Source: a virus
Lineage: Duplodnaviria; Heunggongvirae; Uroviricota; Caudoviricetes
Reading direction: 5' to 3' (one strand)
IMG/VR virus record: IMGVR_UViG_3300030021_000027
DNA length: 13,114 bases
This document shows, piece after piece, positions 1-13,114 of the stretch. The stretch's first letter is position 1. The number at the start of each line of letters is the position of its first letter. The notes beneath the pieces are model-generated. The model was given only the letters and a program-made list of their open reading frames with translations, was not told where the DNA came from and ran no database searches. The translations under genes and the position numbers were made by a program.

Positions 1-318
1 TACTGGCGAGAAACACGCCTTTTTCAGATAACTTGATCATTAAATGCTCCAGATATCTGCGCACCGTGAAGTGCGCAAAAAGATAATAAATGGATATACT
101 CTAAATAATTCGAGTTGCAGGAAGGCGACAAGCGAGTGAATCCCCAGGAGCTTACATAAGTAAGTGACTGGGGTGAGCGAACGCAGACGCAGCACATGCA
201 ACTCAAATTATTTAGAGTATATCCATTTATTATCTTTCTGCGCACTTCACGGTGCGCAGATATCTGGAGCATTTGATGATCAAGTTATCTGAAAAAGGCG
301 TGTTTCTCGCCAGTAATA
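1..318. repeat. ERIC/IRU-like element embedded in a long imperfect palindrome (arms about 1-115 and 201-318)
   Basis: Core at 136-179 contains both classic ERIC primer target sequences (GTGAATCCCCAGGAGCTTACAT and AAGTAAGTGACTGGGGTGAGCG). Positions 1-43 are the exact reverse complement of 276-318, and 61-110 is the reverse complement of 206-255 with one mismatch. Confidence 0.8.
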
Positions 319-2537
319 ACGAAATAATTGCTGAAGAACATTTCACCGGCGAAATTAAAAAAGAAGAAGCCAAAAAAGGCACTATTGCCTGGTCTATTCT
401 CTCTTCGCATAATACGTCCGGAAATATGGATAAACTTAAAATTAAGTTTGATTCATTAGCCTCTCACGATATTACCTTTGTTGGTATTGTACAGACCGCT
501 AAAGCGTCCGGTATGGAACGTTTCCCGCTGCCGTATGTGCTGACCAACTGCCATAACTCACTCTGCGCCGTCGGCGGCACCATTAACGGTGATGACCATG
601 TTTTTGGTTTATCGGCAGCTCAGCGTTATGGCGGTATTTTTGTGCCTCCGCATATTGCGGTCATCCATCAATATATGCGTGAGATGATGGCAGGCGGCGG
701 CAAAATGATCCTCGGGTCAGACAGCCACACCCGTTACGGTGCATTAGGGACAATGGCAGTCGGTGAGGGCGGTGGTGAGTTGGTAAAACAGCTGCTTAAT
801 GACACTTGGGATATCGACTATCCGGGAGTTGTTGCGGTGCATCTGACCGGAAAACCAGCGCCGTATGTGGGGCCGCAGGATGTGGCGCTGGCTATCATTG
901 GCGCGGTGTTCAAAAACGGTTACGTCAAAAACAAAGTCATGGAGTTCGTTGGACCGGGCGTTAGCGCGCTCTCTACCGATTTCCGTAACAGCGTTGACGT
1001 GATGACCACGGAAACCACCTGTTTAAGCTCCGTCTGGCAAACTGATGAAGAAGTGCATAACTGGCTGGCGCTGCACGGTCGCGGCCAGGATTACTGCCAG
1101 CTTAACCCTCAACCGATGGCGTACTACGATGGCTGCATCAGCGTTGATTTAAGCGCCATCAAACCAATGATTGCGCTGCCGTTCCACCCGAGCAACGTGT
1201 ATGAAATCGACACACTGAACCAGAACCTGACCGACATTCTGCGTGAGATTGAAATTGAGTCCGAACGCGTGGCGCACGGTAAAGCCAAACTCTCGCTGCT
1301 GGATAAAGTGGAAAATGGTCGCCTGAAAGTGCAGCAGGGGATTATCGCGGGCTGTTCTGGCGGTAACTACGAAAACGTCATCGCGGCGGCGAATGCACTG
1401 CGCGGTCAATCCTGTGGCAATGACACCTTCTCGCTGGCAGTTTACCCGTCATCACAGCCGGTGTTTATGGATCTCGCCAAAAAAGGTGTGGTAGCAGATT
1501 TGATTGGCGCAGGCGCAATCATCAGAACCGCGTTCTGCGGCCCATGCTTTGGCGCGGGCGATACGCCAATCAACAACGGATTAAGTATTCGCCACACCAC
1601 GCGTAACTTCCCGAACCGCGAAGGCTCTAAGCCAGCTAATGGGCAGATGTCAGCGGTGGCGTTGATGGACGCTCGTTCTATCGCTGCGACTGCGGCAAAC
1701 GGTGGCTATTTAACCTCTGCCAGCGAACTTGATTGCTGGGACAACGTGCCGGAGTACGCCTTCGATGTAACGCCGTATAAAAACCGTGTTTATCAGGGCT
1801 TTGTGAAAGGGGCAACTCAGCAACCGCTGATTTACGGACCGAACATTAAAGACTGGCCGGAATTGGGTGCGCTGACTGACAATATCGTCCTGAAAGTGTG
1901 CTCGAAGATCCTCGACGAAGTGACCACCACCGACGAACTGATTCCTTCCGGTGAAACCTCTTCTTATCGTTCAAATCCGATTGGTCTGGCGGAGTTTACC
2001 CTGTCACGCCGCGATCCCGGTTATGTTGGCAGAAGTAAAGCGACTGCTGAGCTGGAAAATCAGCGTCTGGCGGGGAATGTCAGCGAGCTGACAGAGGTGT
2101 TTGCGCGCATTAAGCAGATTGCTGGTCAGGAGCATATTGATCCGCTGCAAACTGAAATTGGCAGCATGGTATATGCGGTGAAACCAGGCGATGGTTCTGC
2201 GCGTGAACAGGCGGCGAGCTGCCAGCGTGTGATTGGCGGTCTGGCGAATATTGCCGAAGAGTACGCGACTAAACGCTACCGTTCTAACGTCATCAACTGG
2301 GGGATGTTACCGCTGCAGATGGCGGAAGTGCCAACCTTTGAAGTGGGGGATTACATTTACATCCCTGGCATTAAAGCGGCGCTGGATAATCCGGGTACGA
2401 CGTTTAAAGGTTATGTGATCCATGAAGATGCGCCGGTAACGGAAATTACGCTCTATATGGAAAGTCTGACTGCTGAAGAGCGCGAGATTATCAAGGCGGG
2501 TAGTTTGATTAACTTCAATAAAAACCGTCAGATGTAA
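276..2537 (+). CDS. ybhJ: Aconitase-family protein YbhJ (753 aa from ATG at 276; the track ORF begins at an upstream GTG at 252)
   Basis: Long ORF whose translation ([18 protein letters not shown]...) I recognise as E. coli YbhJ. GGAG lies 7 nt upstream of the ATG at 276. Host-like GC content and synteny with ybhC and the att site. Confidence 0.88.
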
Positions 2538-2678: not shown

Positions 2679-3962
2679 TTACTTCTTCGCCTCTGCAACC
2701 ACTTTACTACCCACGCCGCGGTTATTGTATTCCCACATGCGGTTGTAGTTAGTGTCATTCAGATTGCGCTGTATTTCGTCGTTATCATCTACGCTGCCGG
2801 TATTACCCGCAAACGGACGATTAGAGATCACCGCATCGGCCCACGGTTTAGCCGTGTTAAAACCTTCGTTGATGGCGCTATCACGGATCACCACCTGACC
2901 GTTGGTATTGGCATCAACATCCAGCGAGCGGCCCAGTTGCGCCACACCATCACCGAAAGCATTGAAACGGCTGTTTACGGCGAGGAAACCGTAGTAAATG
3001 TTGGACAGCGTAGCCGGTGCAAACACATACGCTTCTTGCTGAGTACGTGAGTTCACCACGCGGAATTCGGTGTTATCGAACACCACTGCGCCGCGACCAG
3101 AAACGATATCCACATCCCCTTCAATGTAGCTGTTGGTCACCAGCGTACGCGGCTGACGGTTGGTTTCCAGACGGTTCTGCACACCGCTGTTGGTGACAAA
3201 GAAGGTGTTCTGACGACCGAGAATGTTAACGTTGTTAATCTGTACCTGGTCACCATCAGTACGCAGTGCCACCGCCGGATGGTTACCTGCATCTACGCTA
3301 TCGCCCAGCGTGTTTTCGATGGTCAGATTTTGCAGTTGCAGGCCATTGTTTTGTGACCAGAAGACCGCAGAGCAGAGAACACCGATACTGTCGCTGCGTT
3401 TGCTCTGGCAGCTATCGTACATATACCACGCTGGTTTACCTGGCATATATTTGCCGCGCGGGTTGACGTCGTGACGCCAGTCGGCAGGGCTCATGCCCCC
3501 ATCAAGGGAAAGCCCAATCTTCACATCAATCGGTTTTTCACCTGTACCGTACAGAGTAATTCCACCCGGAGCAGCAGGGACATACACCGTTCCCTGATAC
3601 TCACCAGGCATCACGGCAATATACTGGCGCTTGTTAGTGCGCTTGATAATTGCCGCATCTACCGCCGCCTGAATCGTGGTATGCGTTACACCTTGAGTAC
3701 CCGCCGGGCCGACAACAAAGTCAGGTTGCGCAGGCAGGGTAATCGGGGAAGGATTCCACGCTGCAGCACCTGGTGTCAGGGATGCAAAATAGTGTTGAGC
3801 ATCGAAATTCTGCGCTTCTTTTGCCGACAGAATCGGGCGAGAAGAGGTACCAGGCGCGGTTTGATCAGAAGGACGTTGATCGGGTGGTGTTGAGCTACAG
3901 GCGGTCAGCGTCACGCCAAAAGCCAATGCCAGCGCCAGACGGGAAACTGAAAATGTGTTCAC
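2679..3962 (-). CDS. ybhC: Outer-membrane lipoprotein YbhC (pectinesterase-like / acyl-CoA thioesterase family), 427 aa
   Basis: ORF translation begins MNTFSVSRLALALAFGVTLTACSS with a lipobox (LTAC). Recognised as YbhC, the gene that flanks attB-lambda in E. coli. Confidence 0.9.
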   Translation of the reverse strand: MNTFSVSRLALALAFGVTLTACSSTPPDQRPSDQTAPGTSSRPILSAKEAQNFDAQHYFASLTPGAAAWNPSPITLPAQPDFVVGPAGTQGVTHTTIQAAVDAAIIKRTNKRQYIAVMPGEYQGTVYVPAAPGGITLYGTGEKPIDVKIGLSLDGGMSPADWRHDVNPRGKYMPGKPAWYMYDSCQSKRSDSIGVLCSAVFWSQNNGLQLQNLTIENTLGDSVDAGNHPAVALRTDGDQVQINNVNILGRQNTFFVTNSGVQNRLETNRQPRTLVTNSYIEGDVDIVSGRGAVVFDNTEFRVVNSRTQQEAYVFAPATLSNIYYGFLAVNSRFNAFGDGVAQLGRSLDVDANTNGQVVIRDSAINEGFNTAKPWADAVISNRPFAGNTGSVDDNDEIQRNLNDTNYNRMWEYNNRGVGSKVVAEAKK

Positions 3963-3994: not shown

Positions 3995-4100
3995 ATCCGT
4001 TGAAGCCTGCTTTTTTATACTAAGTTGGCATTATAAAAAAGCATTGCTTATCAATTTGTTGCAACGAACAGGTCACTATCAGTCAAAATAAAATCATTAT
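3995..4100. other. attL: Phage lambda attL (B-O-P'): bacterial B arm, 15-bp core at 4009-4023, P' arm with Int arm-type sites
   Basis: Core GCTTTTTTATACTAA at 4009-4023 is preceded by attB-type sequence (CCGTTGAAGCCTGC) and followed by lambda P' arm sequence (GTTGGCATTATAAAAAAGCATTGCTTATCAATTTGTTGCAACGAACAGGTCACTATCAGTCAAAATAAAATCATT) running into the int 3' end. Confidence 0.9.
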
Positions 4101-5167
4101 TTGATTTCAATTTTGTCCCACTCCCTGCCTCTGTCATCACGATACTGTGATGCCATGGTGTCCGACTTATGCCCGAGAAGATGTTGAGCAAACTTATCGC
4201 TTATCTGCTTCTCATAGAGTCTTGCAGACAAACTGCGCAACTCGTGAAAGGTAGGCGGATCCCCTTCGAAGGAAAGACCTGATGCTTTTCGTGCGCGCAT
4301 AAAATACCTTGATACTGTGCCGGATGAAAGCGGTTCGCGACGAGTAGATGCAATTATGGTTTCTCCGCCAAGAATCTCTTTGCATTTATCAAGTGTTTCC
4401 TTCATTGATATTCCGAGAGCATCAACATGCAATACTGTTGGGATGGCAATTTTTACGCCTGTTTTGCTTTGCTCGACATAAAGATATCCATCTACGATAT
4501 CAGACCACTTCATTTCGCATAAATCACCAACTCGTTGCCCGGTAACAACAGCCAGTTCCATTGCAAGTCTGAGCCAACATGGTAATGATTCTGCTGCTTG
4601 ATAAATTTTCAGGTATTCGTCAGCCGTAAGTCTTGATCTCCTTACCTCTGATTTTGCTGCGCGAGTGGCAGCGACAGGGTTTGTTGTTATATGGCCTTCA
4701 GCTATTGCCTCTCGGAATGCATCGCTCAGTGTTGATCTGATTAACTTGGCTGACGCCGCCTTGCCCTCGTCTATGTATCCATTGAGCATTGCCGCAATTT
4801 CTTTTGTGGTGATGTCTTCAAGTGGAGCATCAGGCAGACCCCTCCTTATTGCTTTAATTTTGCTCATGTAATTTATGAGTGTCTTCTGCTTGATTCCTCT
4901 GCTGGCCAGGATTTTTTCGTAGCGATCAAGCCATGAATGTAACGTAACGGAATTATCACTGTTGATTCTCGCTGTCAGAGGCTTGTGTTTGTGTCCTGAA
5001 AATAACTCAATGTTGGCCTGTATAGCTTCAGTGATTGCGATTCGCCTGTCTCTGCCTAATCCAAACTCTTTACCCGTCCTTGGGTCCCTGTAGCAGTAAT
5101 ATCCATTGTTTCTTATATAAAGGTTAGGGGGTAAATCCCGGCGCTCATGACTTCGCCTTCTTCCCAT
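4097..5167 (-). CDS. int: Lambda-type tyrosine integrase Int, 356 aa
   Basis: Translation MGRRRSHERRDLPPNLYIRNNGYYCYRDPRTGKEFGLGRDRR... matches phage lambda Int over its full length by my recall. It is adjacent to attL and transcribed toward it, as in a lambda prophage. Confidence 0.97.
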   Translation of the reverse strand: MGRRRSHERRDLPPNLYIRNNGYYCYRDPRTGKEFGLGRDRRIAITEAIQANIELFSGHKHKPLTARINSDNSVTLHSWLDRYEKILASRGIKQKTLINYMSKIKAIRRGLPDAPLEDITTKEIAAMLNGYIDEGKAASAKLIRSTLSDAFREAIAEGHITTNPVAATRAAKSEVRRSRLTADEYLKIYQAAESLPCWLRLAMELAVVTGQRVGDLCEMKWSDIVDGYLYVEQSKTGVKIAIPTVLHVDALGISMKETLDKCKEILGGETIIASTRREPLSSGTVSRYFMRARKASGLSFEGDPPTFHELRSLSARLYEKQISDKFAQHLLGHKSDTMASQYRDDRGREWDKIEIK

Positions 5168-9180: not shown

Positions 9181-9317
9181 TGTTTGAGTTTAATATGGCA
9201 GAACTTCTTCGCCACCGCTGGGGGCGTCTGCGCTTATATCGTTTCCCCGGTTCTGTTTTGACCGATTACCGAATACTGAAGAATTACGCCAAAACACTGA
9301 CAGGAGCAGGAGTATGA
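9180..9317 (+). CDS. ylcG: Small nin-region protein YlcG-like, 45 aa; not in the supplied ORF track
   Basis: My own translation gives [45 protein letters not shown]. Its start overlaps the rusA stop (TGATG arrangement), conserved with DLP12 rusA-ylcG. Confidence 0.75.
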   Translation: MFEFNMAELLRHRWGRLRLYRFPGSVLTDYRILKNYAKTLTGAGV

Positions 9318-9402
9318 AGTCAGAGATAACAATCAACTAATACTGTTTTGTTGATTTTTGCTTGTAATTGGCGTTCTGGTCTGAGTTTTGTGGAGTAAGT
9401 TG

Positions 9403-9780
9403 ATGCGTGATATTCAGATGGTTCTTGAGCGTTGGGGAGCGTGGGCGGCTAATAATCATGAAGATGTGACCTGGTCGTCCATTGCCGCCGGTTTTAAGGG
9501 ATTAATTCCTTCAAAAGTAAAATCTCGCCCACAATGTTGTGACGATGACGCGATGATCATTTGCGGGTGCATGGCCCGTCTGAAAAAGAACAACAGCGAT
9601 TTGCATGATTTATTGGTGGACTATTATGTCGGCGGCATGACTTTTATGGCGCTTGCACGTAAGCATGGGCGATCTGATTGTTGGGTTGGCAGGATGCTTC
9701 AGAAAGCTGAGGGCGTAGTGGAGGGTATGCTGATGGTGTTGGATCTCCGATTGGAGATGGATGCTGATTGTTCGAAATAA
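9403..9780 (+). CDS. quuD: Q-type late-gene antiterminator (QuuD / phage 21 Q-like), 125 aa from ATG 9403; the track ORF starts at TTG 9388
   Basis: Translation [67 protein letters not shown]..., recognised as DLP12 QuuD-like. GGAG lies 8 nt upstream of the ATG. Confidence 0.85.
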
Positions 9781-9789
9781 TTAAAGGAA

Positions 9790-9875
9790 AAGTTGCTGTC
9801 TGATTGTCATTAGTCTAACATTTTAAATGTTGGAATCGCAACGTAGTTATTATCATATAACAGCTTGTTTCCTGA
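9790..9875 (+). promoter_or_regulatory. Candidate late promoter pR' with Q-utilisation region (exact -35/-10 not resolved)
   Basis: Immediately downstream of the Q gene. Sigma70-like hexamers present (TTGCTG, 17 nt, TAACAT; alternatively TTGGAA ... TATCAT). 15-bp inverted repeat AACATTTTAAATGTT. Followed by a strong terminator, as for lambdoid pR'-tR'. Confidence 0.4.
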
Positions 9876-9880
9876 TTTAG

Positions 9881-9907
9881 CCAGCCTCCCCAAAGGCTGG
9901 TTTTTTT
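9881..9907 (+). terminator. Strong rho-independent terminator (tR'-like) downstream of the Q gene
   Basis: CCAGCCT-CCCCAA-AGGCTGG perfect 7-bp stem followed by a run of seven T. Confidence 0.8.
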
Positions 9908-9935
9908 CTAATAAGTATTATTTCGGGTAGGGATT

Positions 9936-10460
9936 TTATTGTTTAACCCATAATAATTCATTGACATTGAATCCCAACTTTTGAGCGGTTCGCACATAGT
10001 CTGCTTTTACTTTATCTGGAATAGTTGGGGTCCTTGCCAGAATCCATAGGTATTCTCTGTTCGGACCACTGACAAGAGCATACTTATACTCATCATCCAG
10101 TTTGATTACATTATAGCCACCATAGAAGGGGCCAAAAAACGAAACCTTCAATGCTGCAGTTTTAGTATCTCCAGTAAAGTATGCTTTACCTTCGCTCTCG
10201 CTCCATTTATTTTTCGTTGGATCGTATCCACGGTTAAGTACACGAATCCCTCCGTCGTTCCGTTTTCCATAAGTAGCGCTGACCTGTTCCAGACCACGTT
10301 CGAACCGGTTCTCGAGGCGAGCTATTTCATACCATTTTCCGAGGTAGCGGTTGGCGTCAAAATTTGTAATCGGCTGCACACCTTTAGGTGGTGTCGGGGC
10401 CTTACATGCTATAAGAGTGAAAGAGAGTGCAATGCCAGTCAACACAGGCCATAACTTCAT
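9936..10460 (-). CDS. Bacterial lipocalin Blc-like outer-membrane lipoprotein, 174 aa
   Basis: Lipoprotein signal MKLWPVLTGIALSFTLIAC (lipobox LIAC). Mature region (FDANRYLGKWYEIARLENRFERGLEQVSATY...KAYFTG...ALKVSFFGPFYGGYNVI...EYLWILARTP) is clearly homologous to E. coli Blc but divergent. Confidence 0.85.
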   Translation of the reverse strand: MKLWPVLTGIALSFTLIACKAPTPPKGVQPITNFDANRYLGKWYEIARLENRFERGLEQVSATYGKRNDGGIRVLNRGYDPTKNKWSESEGKAYFTGDTKTAALKVSFFGPFYGGYNVIKLDDEYKYALVSGPNREYLWILARTPTIPDKVKADYVRTAQKLGFNVNELLWVKQ

Positions 10461-10652
10461 AATAAATCCTGTACTTTTGATAGTTGAGAGTAAGTATGAA
10501 AGATAGATGATTACGACCGATCACTTAAAGAACTTTCATACTATATTAGGAATAGTCCATAACAGAAAAATTGTCAGTGATGACGCCAGAAAGGCAATTT
10601 ATTCCGTGCACTACACAGTTTATGTGTTAATGAATTAGTCAAGGGGGAGAAT

Positions 10653-11612
10653 ATGATAAAAAAACCTGTGATTGGAATCAGCGGTTGTTTGGCCGGTTCT
10701 GCTGTTCGTTTTGATGGTGGTCACAAAAGAGCTGACTTTTTAATGGACAAATTAGTGGAATGGGTAACATTCAGACCAGTATGTCCGGAAATGGCTATAG
10801 GGCTGCCAGTTCCGCGTCCTGCTCTACGTCTTGTGCGCTCGACGCAAGGAAATATACGGATGTGTTTCAGCCACGACCAGAATGAGGATGTGACAGAGAG
10901 AATGACAGAGTTTAGTCGTTCTTATATGGACAAATTAAAGGATGTATCGGGGTTTGTGGTTTGTGCTAAATCTCCCAGCTGTGGCATGGAGCGCGTGCGT
11001 GTCTATGATGAAAATGGTAATCGAGGTCGTAAAGATGGAGTGGGACTATTTACGAGCACTTTGATGGAAAAGTTTTCCTGGCTACCGGTTGAAGAGGATG
11101 GGCGATTACATGATCCAGTGCTTCGTGAGAATTTTGTTGAAAGAGTTTTTGCTTTGCATGAGCTCAATCACCTTTACAAGGAGAAATTATCAAGAAGAGA
11201 GTTATTAGCTTTTCATAGTCGTTATAAGCTTCAGTTGTTGGCGCATAGTCAGGCAGGCTATAAAGATATGGGACCATTTGTGGCTGCAATACACGAGTGG
11301 GCGGACCTTGAATCATACTTTGAGGTGTATCGTGATAAGCTGATGGCGATTCTCAGAAAACCTGCATCACGTAAAAATCACACGAATGTGCTGATGCATA
11401 TACAGGGGTATTTTAGTAACTACTTAAGTACACGCCAGCGTAAAGAGTTGAGCGAGGTTATACTTAACTATCGTTCTGGCACATTACCTCTTCTTGCGCC
11501 GTTGACTCTGCTGAAGCATTATCTGGGTGAGTATCCTAATGATTACTTGCTTACACAGAATTACTTCGATCCCTATCCGGACGAACTGGCTCTAAGACTG
11601 ATGGTAAATTAA
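10653..11612 (+). CDS. DUF523 (TudS-like thiouracil desulfidase fold) / DUF1722 (YbgA-like) fusion protein, 319 aa
   Basis: N-terminus MIKKPVIGISGCLAGSAVRFDGGHKR with conserved Cys residues typical of DUF523. The C-terminal half resembles YbgA-type DUF1722. Strong RBS AAGGGGGAG. Family assignment is from memory, not a search. Confidence 0.8.
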   Translation: MIKKPVIGISGCLAGSAVRFDGGHKRADFLMDKLVEWVTFRPVCPEMAIGLPVPRPALRLVRSTQGNIRMCFSHDQNEDVTERMTEFSRSYMDKLKDVSGFVVCAKSPSCGMERVRVYDENGNRGRKDGVGLFTSTLMEKFSWLPVEEDGRLHDPVLRENFVERVFALHELNHLYKEKLSRRELLAFHSRYKLQLLAHSQAGYKDMGPFVAAIHEWADLESYFEVYRDKLMAILRKPASRKNHTNVLMHIQGYFSNYLSTRQRKELSEVILNYRSGTLPLLAPLTLLKHYLGEYPNDYLLTQNYFDPYPDELALRLMVN

Positions 11613-11963
11613 TTGTATGCGATATCATCCAAAAGGATGAGTTCCTGCATGCAGGATATTTACAATCGTAAAAACTACACTATGATACCCAGAGTGTCAG
11701 TTTGTATAAAAACTCTGTTTACGCTGAAGAAACAATTGAGATGCAACTTAAAGTTGGTAAACATGCCAGTCAAAATATATAATATTATGATTCCACGCAG
11801 CTATATATAATATAACGGATTGGTTTAATAATTTGTCTTTGTGAGTTAAATACATAATTTTATACTTGTGATGCAATGAAATTTTCCTTATTGTTGAACT
11901 GGCGAATATTGATTTTCCACCTATACTTACCTGGTGTAACCCCAATGATATCAGGTGGATAAT

Positions 11964-12695
11964 ATGCCATACATATGTTCTATCATTTTGGTGTTGAACT
12001 CGTTTGATGTCCGAATTGGTAAAGAAGATATTTTGTTTAAAAAAGGAAGTGCTGTTCTCATTGATTACAATTTAAAAGATTTTTTTTCATCAAATATAGA
12101 TCATGTAATGATCGTAGATGTTGAAGAGAAAACAGTTAATGATTTCTTTAAAAGCAACACACTCTCACCTTTTTCTGTAAGAAGGTTTTATCCGGCATAC
12201 TTGATGGTGGAATGTGAAGATTTTTCATTGTTAAAGAACTTGATTGCATGCTTGAATTGTGATGGCAGAACTGTGGATTTTGTTAGAAATCAAATATCAC
12301 TTGCATGTCTTGCTATCTTATCTTCAGAGAAAATAGTGCAAAGTTTTTTATTTGGATGTCTTAATAGTTTAGGAAGTAAAGTTAAGGCTATTATTCACAC
12401 GGATATATCTGCAGCATGGAGACTTTGTGATATATCTTCAAGACTGTATCTGAGTGAAAGTCTGTTAAAAAGAAAATTAAAGCACGAAGGCTTATCATTT
12501 AGTAAGTTAATTCTTGAAGAGCGAATGGTGATGGCGGAAAGGTTATTAAGCTACAATTTATATTCTGTTGGAAAAGTTGCTGAGATATGCGGTTATGAAA
12601 ACACGTCATATTTTGTAAGTGTTTTCAGAAGGTATTTTGGTGTTCCTCCCCATCAATATTCATCAAGATTTTTTTTAGAAAAAGACATGATGTAA
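11964..12695 (+). CDS. AraC-family transcriptional regulator, AppY/EnvY-like, about 243 aa (the track ORF starts at GTG 11955)
   Basis: N-terminus MPYICSIILVLNSFDV resembles AppY (MDYVCSVVFICQSFDL). C-terminal AraC-type helix-turn-helix (ICGYENTSYFVSVFRRYFGVPPHQY). AGGTGG RBS upstream. Preceded by a 340-bp extremely AT-rich region. Confidence 0.85.
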   Translation: MPYICSIILVLNSFDVRIGKEDILFKKGSAVLIDYNLKDFFSSNIDHVMIVDVEEKTVNDFFKSNTLSPFSVRRFYPAYLMVECEDFSLLKNLIACLNCDGRTVDFVRNQISLACLAILSSEKIVQSFLFGCLNSLGSKVKAIIHTDISAAWRLCDISSRLYLSESLLKRKLKHEGLSFSKLILEERMVMAERLLSYNLYSVGKVAEICGYENTSYFVSVFRRYFGVPPHQYSSRFFLEKDMM

Positions 12696-12882
12696 CGTGA
12701 TGCGTTTTAATGATTTTGTAATTTTCGTATTTGATAATTGTATGATGCTTTCAGCTACGCCAGAATAATCGCGGCGTTTTTCTTTTTGAATAGATGTTCA
12801 AGCCTTACGCTAATGTAACTTCTATACCTTTCCTCTTCGTTCCGAACCGTGTACACCATCCGTTATTTGCGGAGGTGAGGCT

Positions 12883-13098
12883 ATGAAATCCATGGATAAG
12901 TTAACAACGGGCATTGCCTACGGCACCTCCGCAGGCAGTGCTGGCTACTGGTTTTTACAGTTGCTCGATAAAGTCACGCCCTCACAGTGGGCAGCAATAG
13001 GTGTGCTGGGTAGCTTGGTATTTGGCCTGCTGACGTACCTGACAAACCTTTATTTCAAGATTAAAGAAGATAAGCGCAAGGCTGCGAGAGGTGAATAA
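12883..13098 (+). CDS. essD: Phage-21-type class II holin (pinholin S21 / EssD-like) with dual-start motif, 71 aa
   Basis: Translation [71 protein letters not shown]. Met1 and Met4 are separated by Lys-Ser (antiholin/holin dual start). GGAGG RBS. Confidence 0.9.
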
Positions 13099-13114
13099 TG
13101 CCTCCATCATTACG
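13098..13114 (+). CDS. rrrD: 5' end of endolysin gene (SAR-endolysin R21 / RrrD-like), truncated by the window edge
   Basis: ATG overlaps the holin stop (TAATG). The first codons MPPSL match the N-terminus of phage 21 / DLP12 lysozyme. Only 17 nt are visible. Confidence 0.5.

Follow-up and report, generated by a model that had tools for sequence, protein, structure and literature searches.

Escherichia coli prophages encode several AraC-type regulators, namely AppY, PatE and PsrA/PsrB, that are already known to plug into the gadE acid-resistance circuitry and into virulence circuitry of the host. PatE (Z0321) belongs to prophage Sp1 (= CP-933H, OI-8) of E. coli O157:H7 and is taken here to be ECs_0287, because that prophage has no other AraC-type gene (PMC10877973); it activates gadE, gadBC and hdeAB and represses some genes of the locus of enterocyte effacement (PMC10877973). 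PsrB, like PatE, turns on gadE/hdeAB and acid resistance (PMC10877973), and PsrA/PsrB act on host gadE/yhiF and hdeA (PMC10877973, PMC8565820), with a response of psrA to relief of Hha/H-NS silencing having been suggested (PMC13502914). AppY directly targets gadE, AppY, GadW and YdeO activate the gadE/hdeAB (AR2) promoters, and appY is influenced by H-NS and RpoS and damped by H-NS/Hha (PMC10057817). Here we analyze an uncharacterized relative of these regulators, the AraC/XylS-type protein WP_001146308.1, which no named family model captures and which is encoded within positions 11613-12695 of the 13,114-nt viral (Caudoviricetes) DNA stretch IMGVR_UViG_3300030021_000027, referred to below as the window. 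As an earlier reading of the window, made from the letters alone (the sequence-only reading), had stated, the gene is prophage-borne; it lies in a lambdoid prophage at attB-lambda. We consider, with moderate confidence, that the locus is an autonomous moron encoding an activator, the most likely action of which is activation of gadE/hdeAB acid resistance in the lysogen.

The regulator and its relatives

The window protein (243 aa) scores above the gathering cut-offs of two Pfam models, HTH_18 (E=1.1e-14, 54.9 bits vs 33.6) and HTH_AraC (E=2e-11, 44.1 bits vs 26.6), and consists of an N-terminal beta-rich regulatory domain with a helical linker (residues ~1-135) and a C-terminal DNA-binding domain with a double helix-turn-helix (HTH; residues ~136-236). 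In BLASTP comparisons with the K-12 paralogs, fetched from NC_000913, full-length alignments that include the N-terminal domain were obtained with GadW (34% identity, 143 bits), AppY (32%, 131 bits) and YdeO (32%, 123 bits), as also with PatE; the match to GadX (41%) is confined to the DNA-binding domain, and that to EnvY (29%, 73 bits) is a gapped local alignment of 218 aa. Pairwise identity to PatE (Sakai ECs_0287 / WP_000246059.1) reaches 54% over 235 aa, and identity to PsrA (ECs_1087) is 48% over the C-terminal 159 aa and 39% over the full 237-aa open reading frame (ORF). In an alignment of 14 sequences, the identity declines from 82-84% for alleles of the same gene and 64% and 54% for metagenomic homologs to 52% for PatE, 39% for PsrA, 33% for GadW, 31% for AppY and 30% for YdeO, with GadX, AdiY and EnvY (24-25%) at the far end of the comparison. 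M1 and C5 do not vary in this alignment, and the subgroup traits, a length of ~240-250 aa and the N-terminal M-x-x-x-C-S-V/I, are present in the window protein. No NCBIfam equivalog model scores above its cut-off, the best one being YdeO with 127 bits against a required 348.

By these comparisons, the window protein is best placed as a member of the GadW/AppY/YdeO/PatE/PsrA clade, with PatE as its closest characterized relative. Judged by the 54% identity and the different position within the prophage, it is a homolog of PatE that shares its promoter layout, not an ortholog, and on similar grounds it is assigned neither to AppY (32% identity, another prophage and slot, no NCBIfam equivalog) nor to EnvY (25-29% identity) as an ortholog. 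The description of the product as an "AppY/EnvY-like" AraC regulator in the sequence-only reading was therefore right about the family and about the subfamily that includes AppY, but misplaced in emphasis, with PatE, PsrA (39-48%) and GadW all being closer.

The gene encodes an intact protein, and purifying selection acts on it. All 21 of the 21 subfamily-invariant columns are kept, mostly within the DNA-binding domain, where W152, S164, S166, L167, K169, L172, R187, M188, A191, C209, G210, Y211, S215, Y216, F217, F221 and P229 are retained; accordingly, the alignment check proposed in the sequence-only reading found the HTH residues undisrupted. The first recognition helix, SESLLKRKLK, is identical in PatE. 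Among three allele types, the Nei-Gojobori ratio of nonsynonymous to synonymous substitution rates (dN/dS) is 0.20-0.25 for the whole gene, 0.11-0.13 for the DNA-binding domain and 0.32-0.56 for the N-terminal domain. The AlphaFold (AF2) model, with a predicted local distance difference test score of 78.6, combines the N-terminal beta-rich domain and the helical linker with a seven-helix DNA-binding domain. The best full-length Foldseek matches to this model are Rns, CsvR and ToxT, which are also matched at the sequence level in PDB, and the DNA-binding domain of GadX superposes on it at a root-mean-square deviation (rmsd) of 1.5 Å with 40% identity.

The alleles are mosaic inside the coding sequence. 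Against the Qin-type allele of strain S1, the synonymous divergence (dS) is 0.10 in the N-terminal half and 0.77 in the DNA-binding half, with identity falling to 71-76% at 12528-12727, and against the allele of phage Lambda_2E9 the dS pattern of the two halves is reversed, which suggests recombination breakpoints inside the regulator gene.

Composition, expression signals and distribution of the module

The sequence-only reading had set the regulator behind a 340-bp "extremely AT-rich" upstream region. The intergenic region (Table 1) is indeed AT-rich, and only 4% of all 342-bp segments match it in this respect, the minimum in the window being 28.4% GC at 11768; at 32%, however, "extremely" is an overstatement, and the property is not peculiar to the upstream region. 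The coding sequence has 31.8% GC and thus equals the intergenic region in AT-richness, so the anomaly is assigned to the whole ~1.1-kb module (11613-12750), which is compositionally foreign. The 31.9% GC of 11613-12695 overall compares with 45.2% for the whole window, 43-48% for the neighboring phage genes and 51-53% for the host genes ybhJ/ybhC, in agreement with the suggestion that this is horizontally acquired DNA. Two 65-aa ORFs within the intergenic region, 11613-11810 (+) and 11748-11945 (-), were rejected as genes: neither has a Pfam match and both are affected by indels of non-triplet length between alleles, because of which the region is regarded as non-coding. An Rfam scan of 9300-13114 at E<=1 returned only sub-threshold chance matches and none at all in the intergenic region.

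The listed ORF extends from GTG 11955 to 12695, and this GTG did not stand as the start of the gene. The true start is almost certainly ATG 11964, 9 nt further inside, because the RefSeq annotation begins there and the GTG falls within the Shine-Dalgarno sequence AGGTGG, itself part of a block, ATCAGGTGG, that is near-invariant among homologs.

Upstream of this start, the heptamer TATACTT (11922-11928) is invariant in 6 homologs of 52-100% protein identity, patE of O157 included, and is preceded, 17-18 nt upstream, by a TGG(C/T)(A/G) block. The -35 and spacer combinations take the forms TTGGCA-18-TATACT in patE and homolog L015, TTGGTA-17 in L014, ATGGCA-17 in Lambda_2E9 and CTGGCG-17 in the window. 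With a C at -13 and TA downstream, the -10 element reads CTATACTTA and is sigma-S-like, the sigma-S -10 consensus being TCTATACTTAA, as reported by Weber in 2005 and Typas in 2007. We interpret the TATACTT island as the regulator gene's own predicted proximal promoter, P2, probably of the sigma-S type, with a predicted transcription start near 11934 and a 5' untranslated region of ~30 nt. Such a -10 element is in keeping with the report that patE is expressed in stationary phase in an RpoS-linked manner (PMC10877973).

A second, distal promoter-like island, P1, is readable on the plus strand as TTTACA-16-TATGAT (11659-11686), with 10/12 positions matching the consensus in the promoter scan, or on the minus strand as TTTATA-17-TATCAT (11710-11682, 9/12). 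The P1 block is 100% conserved in all alleles of the cassette that comprises the lipocalin, YbgA-like and AraC genes, and the intergenic region surrounding it varies more between alleles than any other part of the locus (12-76% identity vs 91-100% for the preceding lipocalin/ybgA). Two further promoter-like sites from the scan, 11754-11783 and 11839-11866, were dropped because they are not conserved in the Lambda_2E9-type allele.

The hexamer CCACCT (11917-11922), 31 nt upstream of the Shine-Dalgarno sequence, is an exact complement of AGGTGG, is invariant in cassette alleles, and could sequester the ribosome-binding site in transcripts starting upstream, at P1 or by late read-through. The idea of such sequestration or of an RNA thermometer was dropped given that minimum-free-energy folds ignore CCACCT and the z-scores are non-significant (-0.88, +0.86); the conservation is attributed to the overlap with the -10/-13 region of P2.

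The AraC gene is followed by an intrinsic-terminator-like hairpin and T-run. In most other alleles, the stem pairs perfectly over 7 bp, ACGCCAG-N8-CTGGCGT, and T5CT4 comes next, and the L015 homolog has a different, covarying stem, CCAGCA-TTAT-TGCTGG, with a T-run. A 1-nt deletion (ATCGC-GGCG vs ATCGCTGGCG) is shared by the window and the two further attB-lambda copies that were inspected (L001, L019) and is absent from the intact phage IdasGreatGrand and the other alleles checked; it may lead to more read-through into essD/rrrD.

H-NS silencing of the regulator gene appears plausible from its composition and its likeness to appY and psrA. The published high-affinity H-NS motif TCGATAAATT, searched with <=2 mismatches, is not enriched in the window as a whole (11 matches vs 18.7 expected).

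The module further has the traits of a moron, being an extra gene between phage genes, with 32% GC vs 43-48% in its neighbors and a presence/absence polymorphism among relatives. Together, the predicted promoter, the gene and the predicted terminator would make it a classical moron. The sequence-only reading had noted neither the moron position between Q and holin, nor the conserved promoter in common with patE, nor the terminator.

A copy of the regulator locus, counted as present when >=80% of 11613-12760 was covered, was found in 975 of 5426 complete E. coli genomes (~18%), and its ORF is intact at >=99% identity in hundreds of genomes. Among 1654 matching records, the identity at the best place is >=99% in 590, 95-99% in 3, 90-95% in 39, 80-90% in 444 and 60-80% in 578, the last band consisting mostly of partial matches to other AraC genes. 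The lipocalin and YbgA-like genes are present in 1048 of the 5426 genomes, nearly the same set. The gene was also detected by tblastn in 12 isolated temperate phages, with 99% identity in IdasGreatGrand and 83% in Lambda_2E9, 1H12 and 'ev' lambda-like phages; PatE-like genes occur at 52-53% in phages mEp332, PhiR70_1 and ev099. The order Q, lipocalin (-), YbgA, AraC, holin is identical in four phage/prophage backgrounds, namely Lambda_2E9, IdasGreatGrand, a Qin-type prophage (strains S1 and AS19) and another lambda-like prophage. The homologs P0013 (64%) and P0015 (54-56%) are located directly between Q and holin, lack the lipocalin and YbgA-like genes, and follow two further Q families, PF03589 and PF06323. 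The AraC module is found behind three Q types, with or without lipocalin/YbgA neighbors, and diverges between alleles to 58-93% identity vs 91-100% for lipocalin/ybgA.

In a scan of species-representative genomes, nothing was found outside Escherichia save a contig of a 'Nanosynbacter' metagenome-assembled genome and two irrelevant HTH matches. This 3.2-kb 'Candidatus Nanosynbacter' contig (JARKOR010000151.1; L016), binned to Saccharibacteria, carries a 99%-identical gene copy with the same P1, P2 and terminator; it is almost certainly a contaminant of E. coli phage origin and was rejected as a non-Escherichia carrier. In strain AS19-RrmA- (L020 6468-11464), which we take to be an E. coli B derivative, a 237-aa allele (WP_001146314.1, ~85% DNA identity) resides in the Qin prophage, with an IS3 inside ybgA.

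Predicted role and rival explanations

The sequence-only reading had proposed that a prophage regulator here acts on host genes, and the known relatives do exactly this (PMC10057817, PMC10877973). In the model that we favor, its own promoter would drive transcription of the regulator in the lysogen, probably under RpoS in stationary phase, with expression probably damped by H-NS because of the 68% A+T content. The protein would bind AT-rich sites at host promoters and most likely activate gadE and hdeAB of the AR2 acid-resistance regulon, as PatE, PsrB, AppY, GadW and YdeO do, so that the carrier strain would survive acid better. When an intact phage grows lytically, Q-modified polymerase would, in addition, read through the cassette into the lysis genes. 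With the host phenotypes known for PatE, PsrA/B and AppY, the regulator is a plausible candidate for lysogenic conversion, and gadE/hdeAB would be a better first guess for its targets than hya/app.

Several observations weigh against this model. Proteins that are 54% identical, as this one and PatE are, need not share targets, and divergence is greater in the N-terminal (signal) domain than in the rest of the protein. Although the promoter and terminator are conserved sequence elements, in the window allele the -35 of P2 is poor (CTGGCG, 3/6), P2 was missed by the consensus promoter scan, and the 1-nt deletion cuts the terminator stem to 5 bp (ACGCC/GGCGT). At the same stringency as above, the H-NS motif has no match in 11613-12695. 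In the literature, no paper mentions WP_001146308.

Among the alternatives, control of the adjacent lipocalin and YbgA (DUF523-DUF1722) genes instead of host genes appears unlikely, although the three genes co-occur (975 genomes for AraC vs 1048 for lipocalin and YbgA), their order is kept in four backgrounds, ybgA and the regulator gene are separated by a stretch containing the conserved P1 island, and proteins of the AraC family often regulate their neighbors. The homologs P0013, P0015, PatE and PsrA have no lipocalin/YbgA neighbors, and the AraC module has its own predicted promoter and terminator and a divergence history unlike that of the neighboring genes. A functional equivalent of AppY, switching on hya (hydrogenase 1), app/cbd and further operons of anaerobic growth or stationary phase, is quite unlikely: AppY belongs to the same subfamily, aligns over its full length at 32% identity, is itself borne by a prophage, DLP12 (PMC10057817), and also acts on gadE, so that the regulons of the clade overlap, but it is only the fourth-closest characterized relative, after PatE, PsrA and GadW, no NCBIfam equivalog exceeds its cut-off, and appY occupies a different position, at the right prophage end adjoining ompT.

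A role in phage development, tuning late-gene or lysis expression or the lysis-lysogeny decision, could be argued from the position downstream of Q and immediately upstream of the holin gene, which is conserved across three Q types, and from P0013 and P0015, where the late transcript would begin with the AraC homolog. The slot between Q and the holin gene S (the Q-S slot) is, however, the classic site of host-directed cargo such as stx or, in DLP12, nmpC; PatE is sited elsewhere in its prophage; and purifying selection preserves the regulator in a remnant that lacks immunity and cannot be induced, a point in favor of a host benefit, so this role is very unlikely. Even less probable, to the point of being hardly credible, is a silent, decaying remnant without function. 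The heavy decay of the surrounding prophage, the terminator deletion and the weak -35 of P2 point in that direction, but hundreds of genomes carry an undamaged ORF of >=99% identity, dN/dS is 0.2, and all invariant HTH residues are kept.

Two extensions of the gadE/hdeAB model, jointly given a low probability, are a Q-dependent late transcript that brings a lytic-phase gad activator and an N-terminal domain that senses gut fatty acids. The lytic extension is prompted by the regulator being the first gene after Q in some relatives (P0013, P0015): induction would flood the dying cell with an activator of gad/acid-stress genes, the phage thereby reprogramming host stress physiology, in addition to the benefit to the lysogen from the sigma-S-type promoter. 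As to the ligand, fatty-acid binding is what defines the control of Rns and ToxT, and a similar N-terminal domain here would let acid resistance respond to signals from diet or bile in ~18% of E. coli strains.

The regulator is a candidate for a very common input to E. coli stress regulation, being carried by ~1 in 6 complete genomes and >=12 isolated temperate phages, with the carriers apparently including the E. coli B lineage with its 85%-identical allele. If it does drive acid resistance, it would be a widespread mobile factor, varying from strain to strain, that feeds into survival in the stomach and into stationary-phase physiology, and this would explain the retention of the Q-S segment in the decayed attB-lambda prophage. 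The promoter shared with patE offers a handle on the expression of PatE-group morons from silent prophages and may be group-wide.

Prophage neighborhood and comparison with known systems

The window starts with the host genes ybhJ and ybhC, and the prophage begins directly after ybhC, which is the attB-lambda site; its genes follow in the order integrase, excisionase, early-region remnants, rusA, ylcG, Q, lipocalin, YbgA-like, AraC and essD (Table 1). In strain EC20-4B-2, which has an identical genome (the window corresponds to L019 16001-28918), the entire element spans ~18 kb between ybhC and ybhB (L019 19901-38051), lacks the immunity region, the replication genes and almost all structural genes, and contains an inverted and truncated terminase. 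Given these losses, the element is a decayed, non-inducible lambdoid remnant fixed at attB-lambda. At its right end, adjoining ybhB, there is a cargo gene for a GGDEF diguanylate cyclase. The lipocalin and YbgA-like genes travel as a pair, also in isolated lambda-like phages, and lipocalin homologs of 67% identity are also plasmid-borne.

Table 1. Coordinates of genes and predicted signals in the window
Feature	Position	Strand	Description
Host gene ybhJ	252-2537	+	
Host gene ybhC	2679-3962	-	
Integrase gene	4097-5167	-	
Q-family late antiterminator gene	9388-9780	+	
Intrinsic terminator, tR'-like	9879-9909	+	strong; ~100 nt downstream of Q; 9-bp stem, 5 GC pairs, T-run
Blc-like lipocalin cargo gene	9936-10460	-	first of three-gene cassette
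YbgA-like cargo gene	10653-11612	+	DUF523 (2-thiouracil desulfurase) + DUF1722 fusion
AT-rich intergenic region	11616-11963	none	348 bp, 32.2% GC
Distal promoter-like island P1	11659-11722	readable on both	fully conserved in cassette alleles
Proximal promoter P2 (predicted)	11899-11927	+	-35-like CTGGCG 11899-11904, 17-nt spacer, -10 TATACT 11922-11927
Shine-Dalgarno AGGTGG	11953-11958	+	5 nt before ATG 11964; contains GTG 11955
AraC/XylS-type coding sequence	11964-12695	+	frame +3
Region encoding the DNA-binding domain	12369-12671	+	
Intrinsic-terminator-like hairpin + T-run	12757-12788	+	3' of AraC gene
Holin gene essD	12883-13098	+	first lysis gene

A late promoter likely lies between 9780 and 9879, so that, together with the terminator behind Q, a pR'/tR' short-transcript unit is predicted; in Rfam, this terminator has only a sub-threshold match (RF02278, 28.6 bits vs a gathering score of 50). 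The Q-to-holin slot that holds the AraC gene here is occupied by nmpC in DLP12 of K-12, and psrA of Sp4 is likewise located downstream of Q.

Of the known systems, PatE is the closest to the window locus. The two proteins are of similar length (247 vs 243 aa), with the same MxxxCSVIL N-terminus and the same recognition helix, and both genes are prophage-borne and AT-rich and have a comparable promoter layout (TTGGCA-18-TATACT vs CTGGCG-17-TATACT). In contrast to the window gene, patE is found behind pin and the tail-fibre genes, where a lambdoid remnant has its right end, not in the Q-S slot, and the identity of the proteins is 54%. A gene of E. coli Nissle 1917 that was overexpressed under the name 'PatE' (CIW80_12240; bioRxiv 10.1101/2025.08.01.668021; region L013 11242-14931 examined) was rejected as direct evidence because it is in the gadW position, two locus tags from gadA (CIW80_12250) in the acid fitness island, and hence is neither the window gene nor a prophage PatE homolog.

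PsrA and PsrB (Z1789, Z2104; ECs_1087 in Sp4), secretion regulators of enterohemorrhagic E. coli, belong to the same clade, and PsrA similarly occupies a late cargo slot downstream of Q; unlike the window gene, however, PsrA has links to tRNA genes, to effector loci and to pch regulators, none of which is present at the window locus, and identity is limited to 39% over the full length of PsrA and 48% in its C-terminal part. GadW, AppY and YdeO of K-12 are full-length homologs (34%, 32% and 32%) and are all activators feeding gadE and acid resistance, but their identity is far below that of PatE and the window protein is orthologous to none of them. Rns, CsvR and ToxT share the two-domain architecture and size, whereas the sequence identity is only 18-20% and the domain orientation in the model of the window protein differs (rmsd ~15 Å). 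Finally, the locus resembles the Q-S slot morons, such as stx in Stx phages and nmpC in DLP12, in the slot itself, the possession of its own predicted promoter and terminator, the deviant composition and the presence/absence polymorphism, and differs from them in that its cargo is a transcription factor instead of a toxin or a porin.

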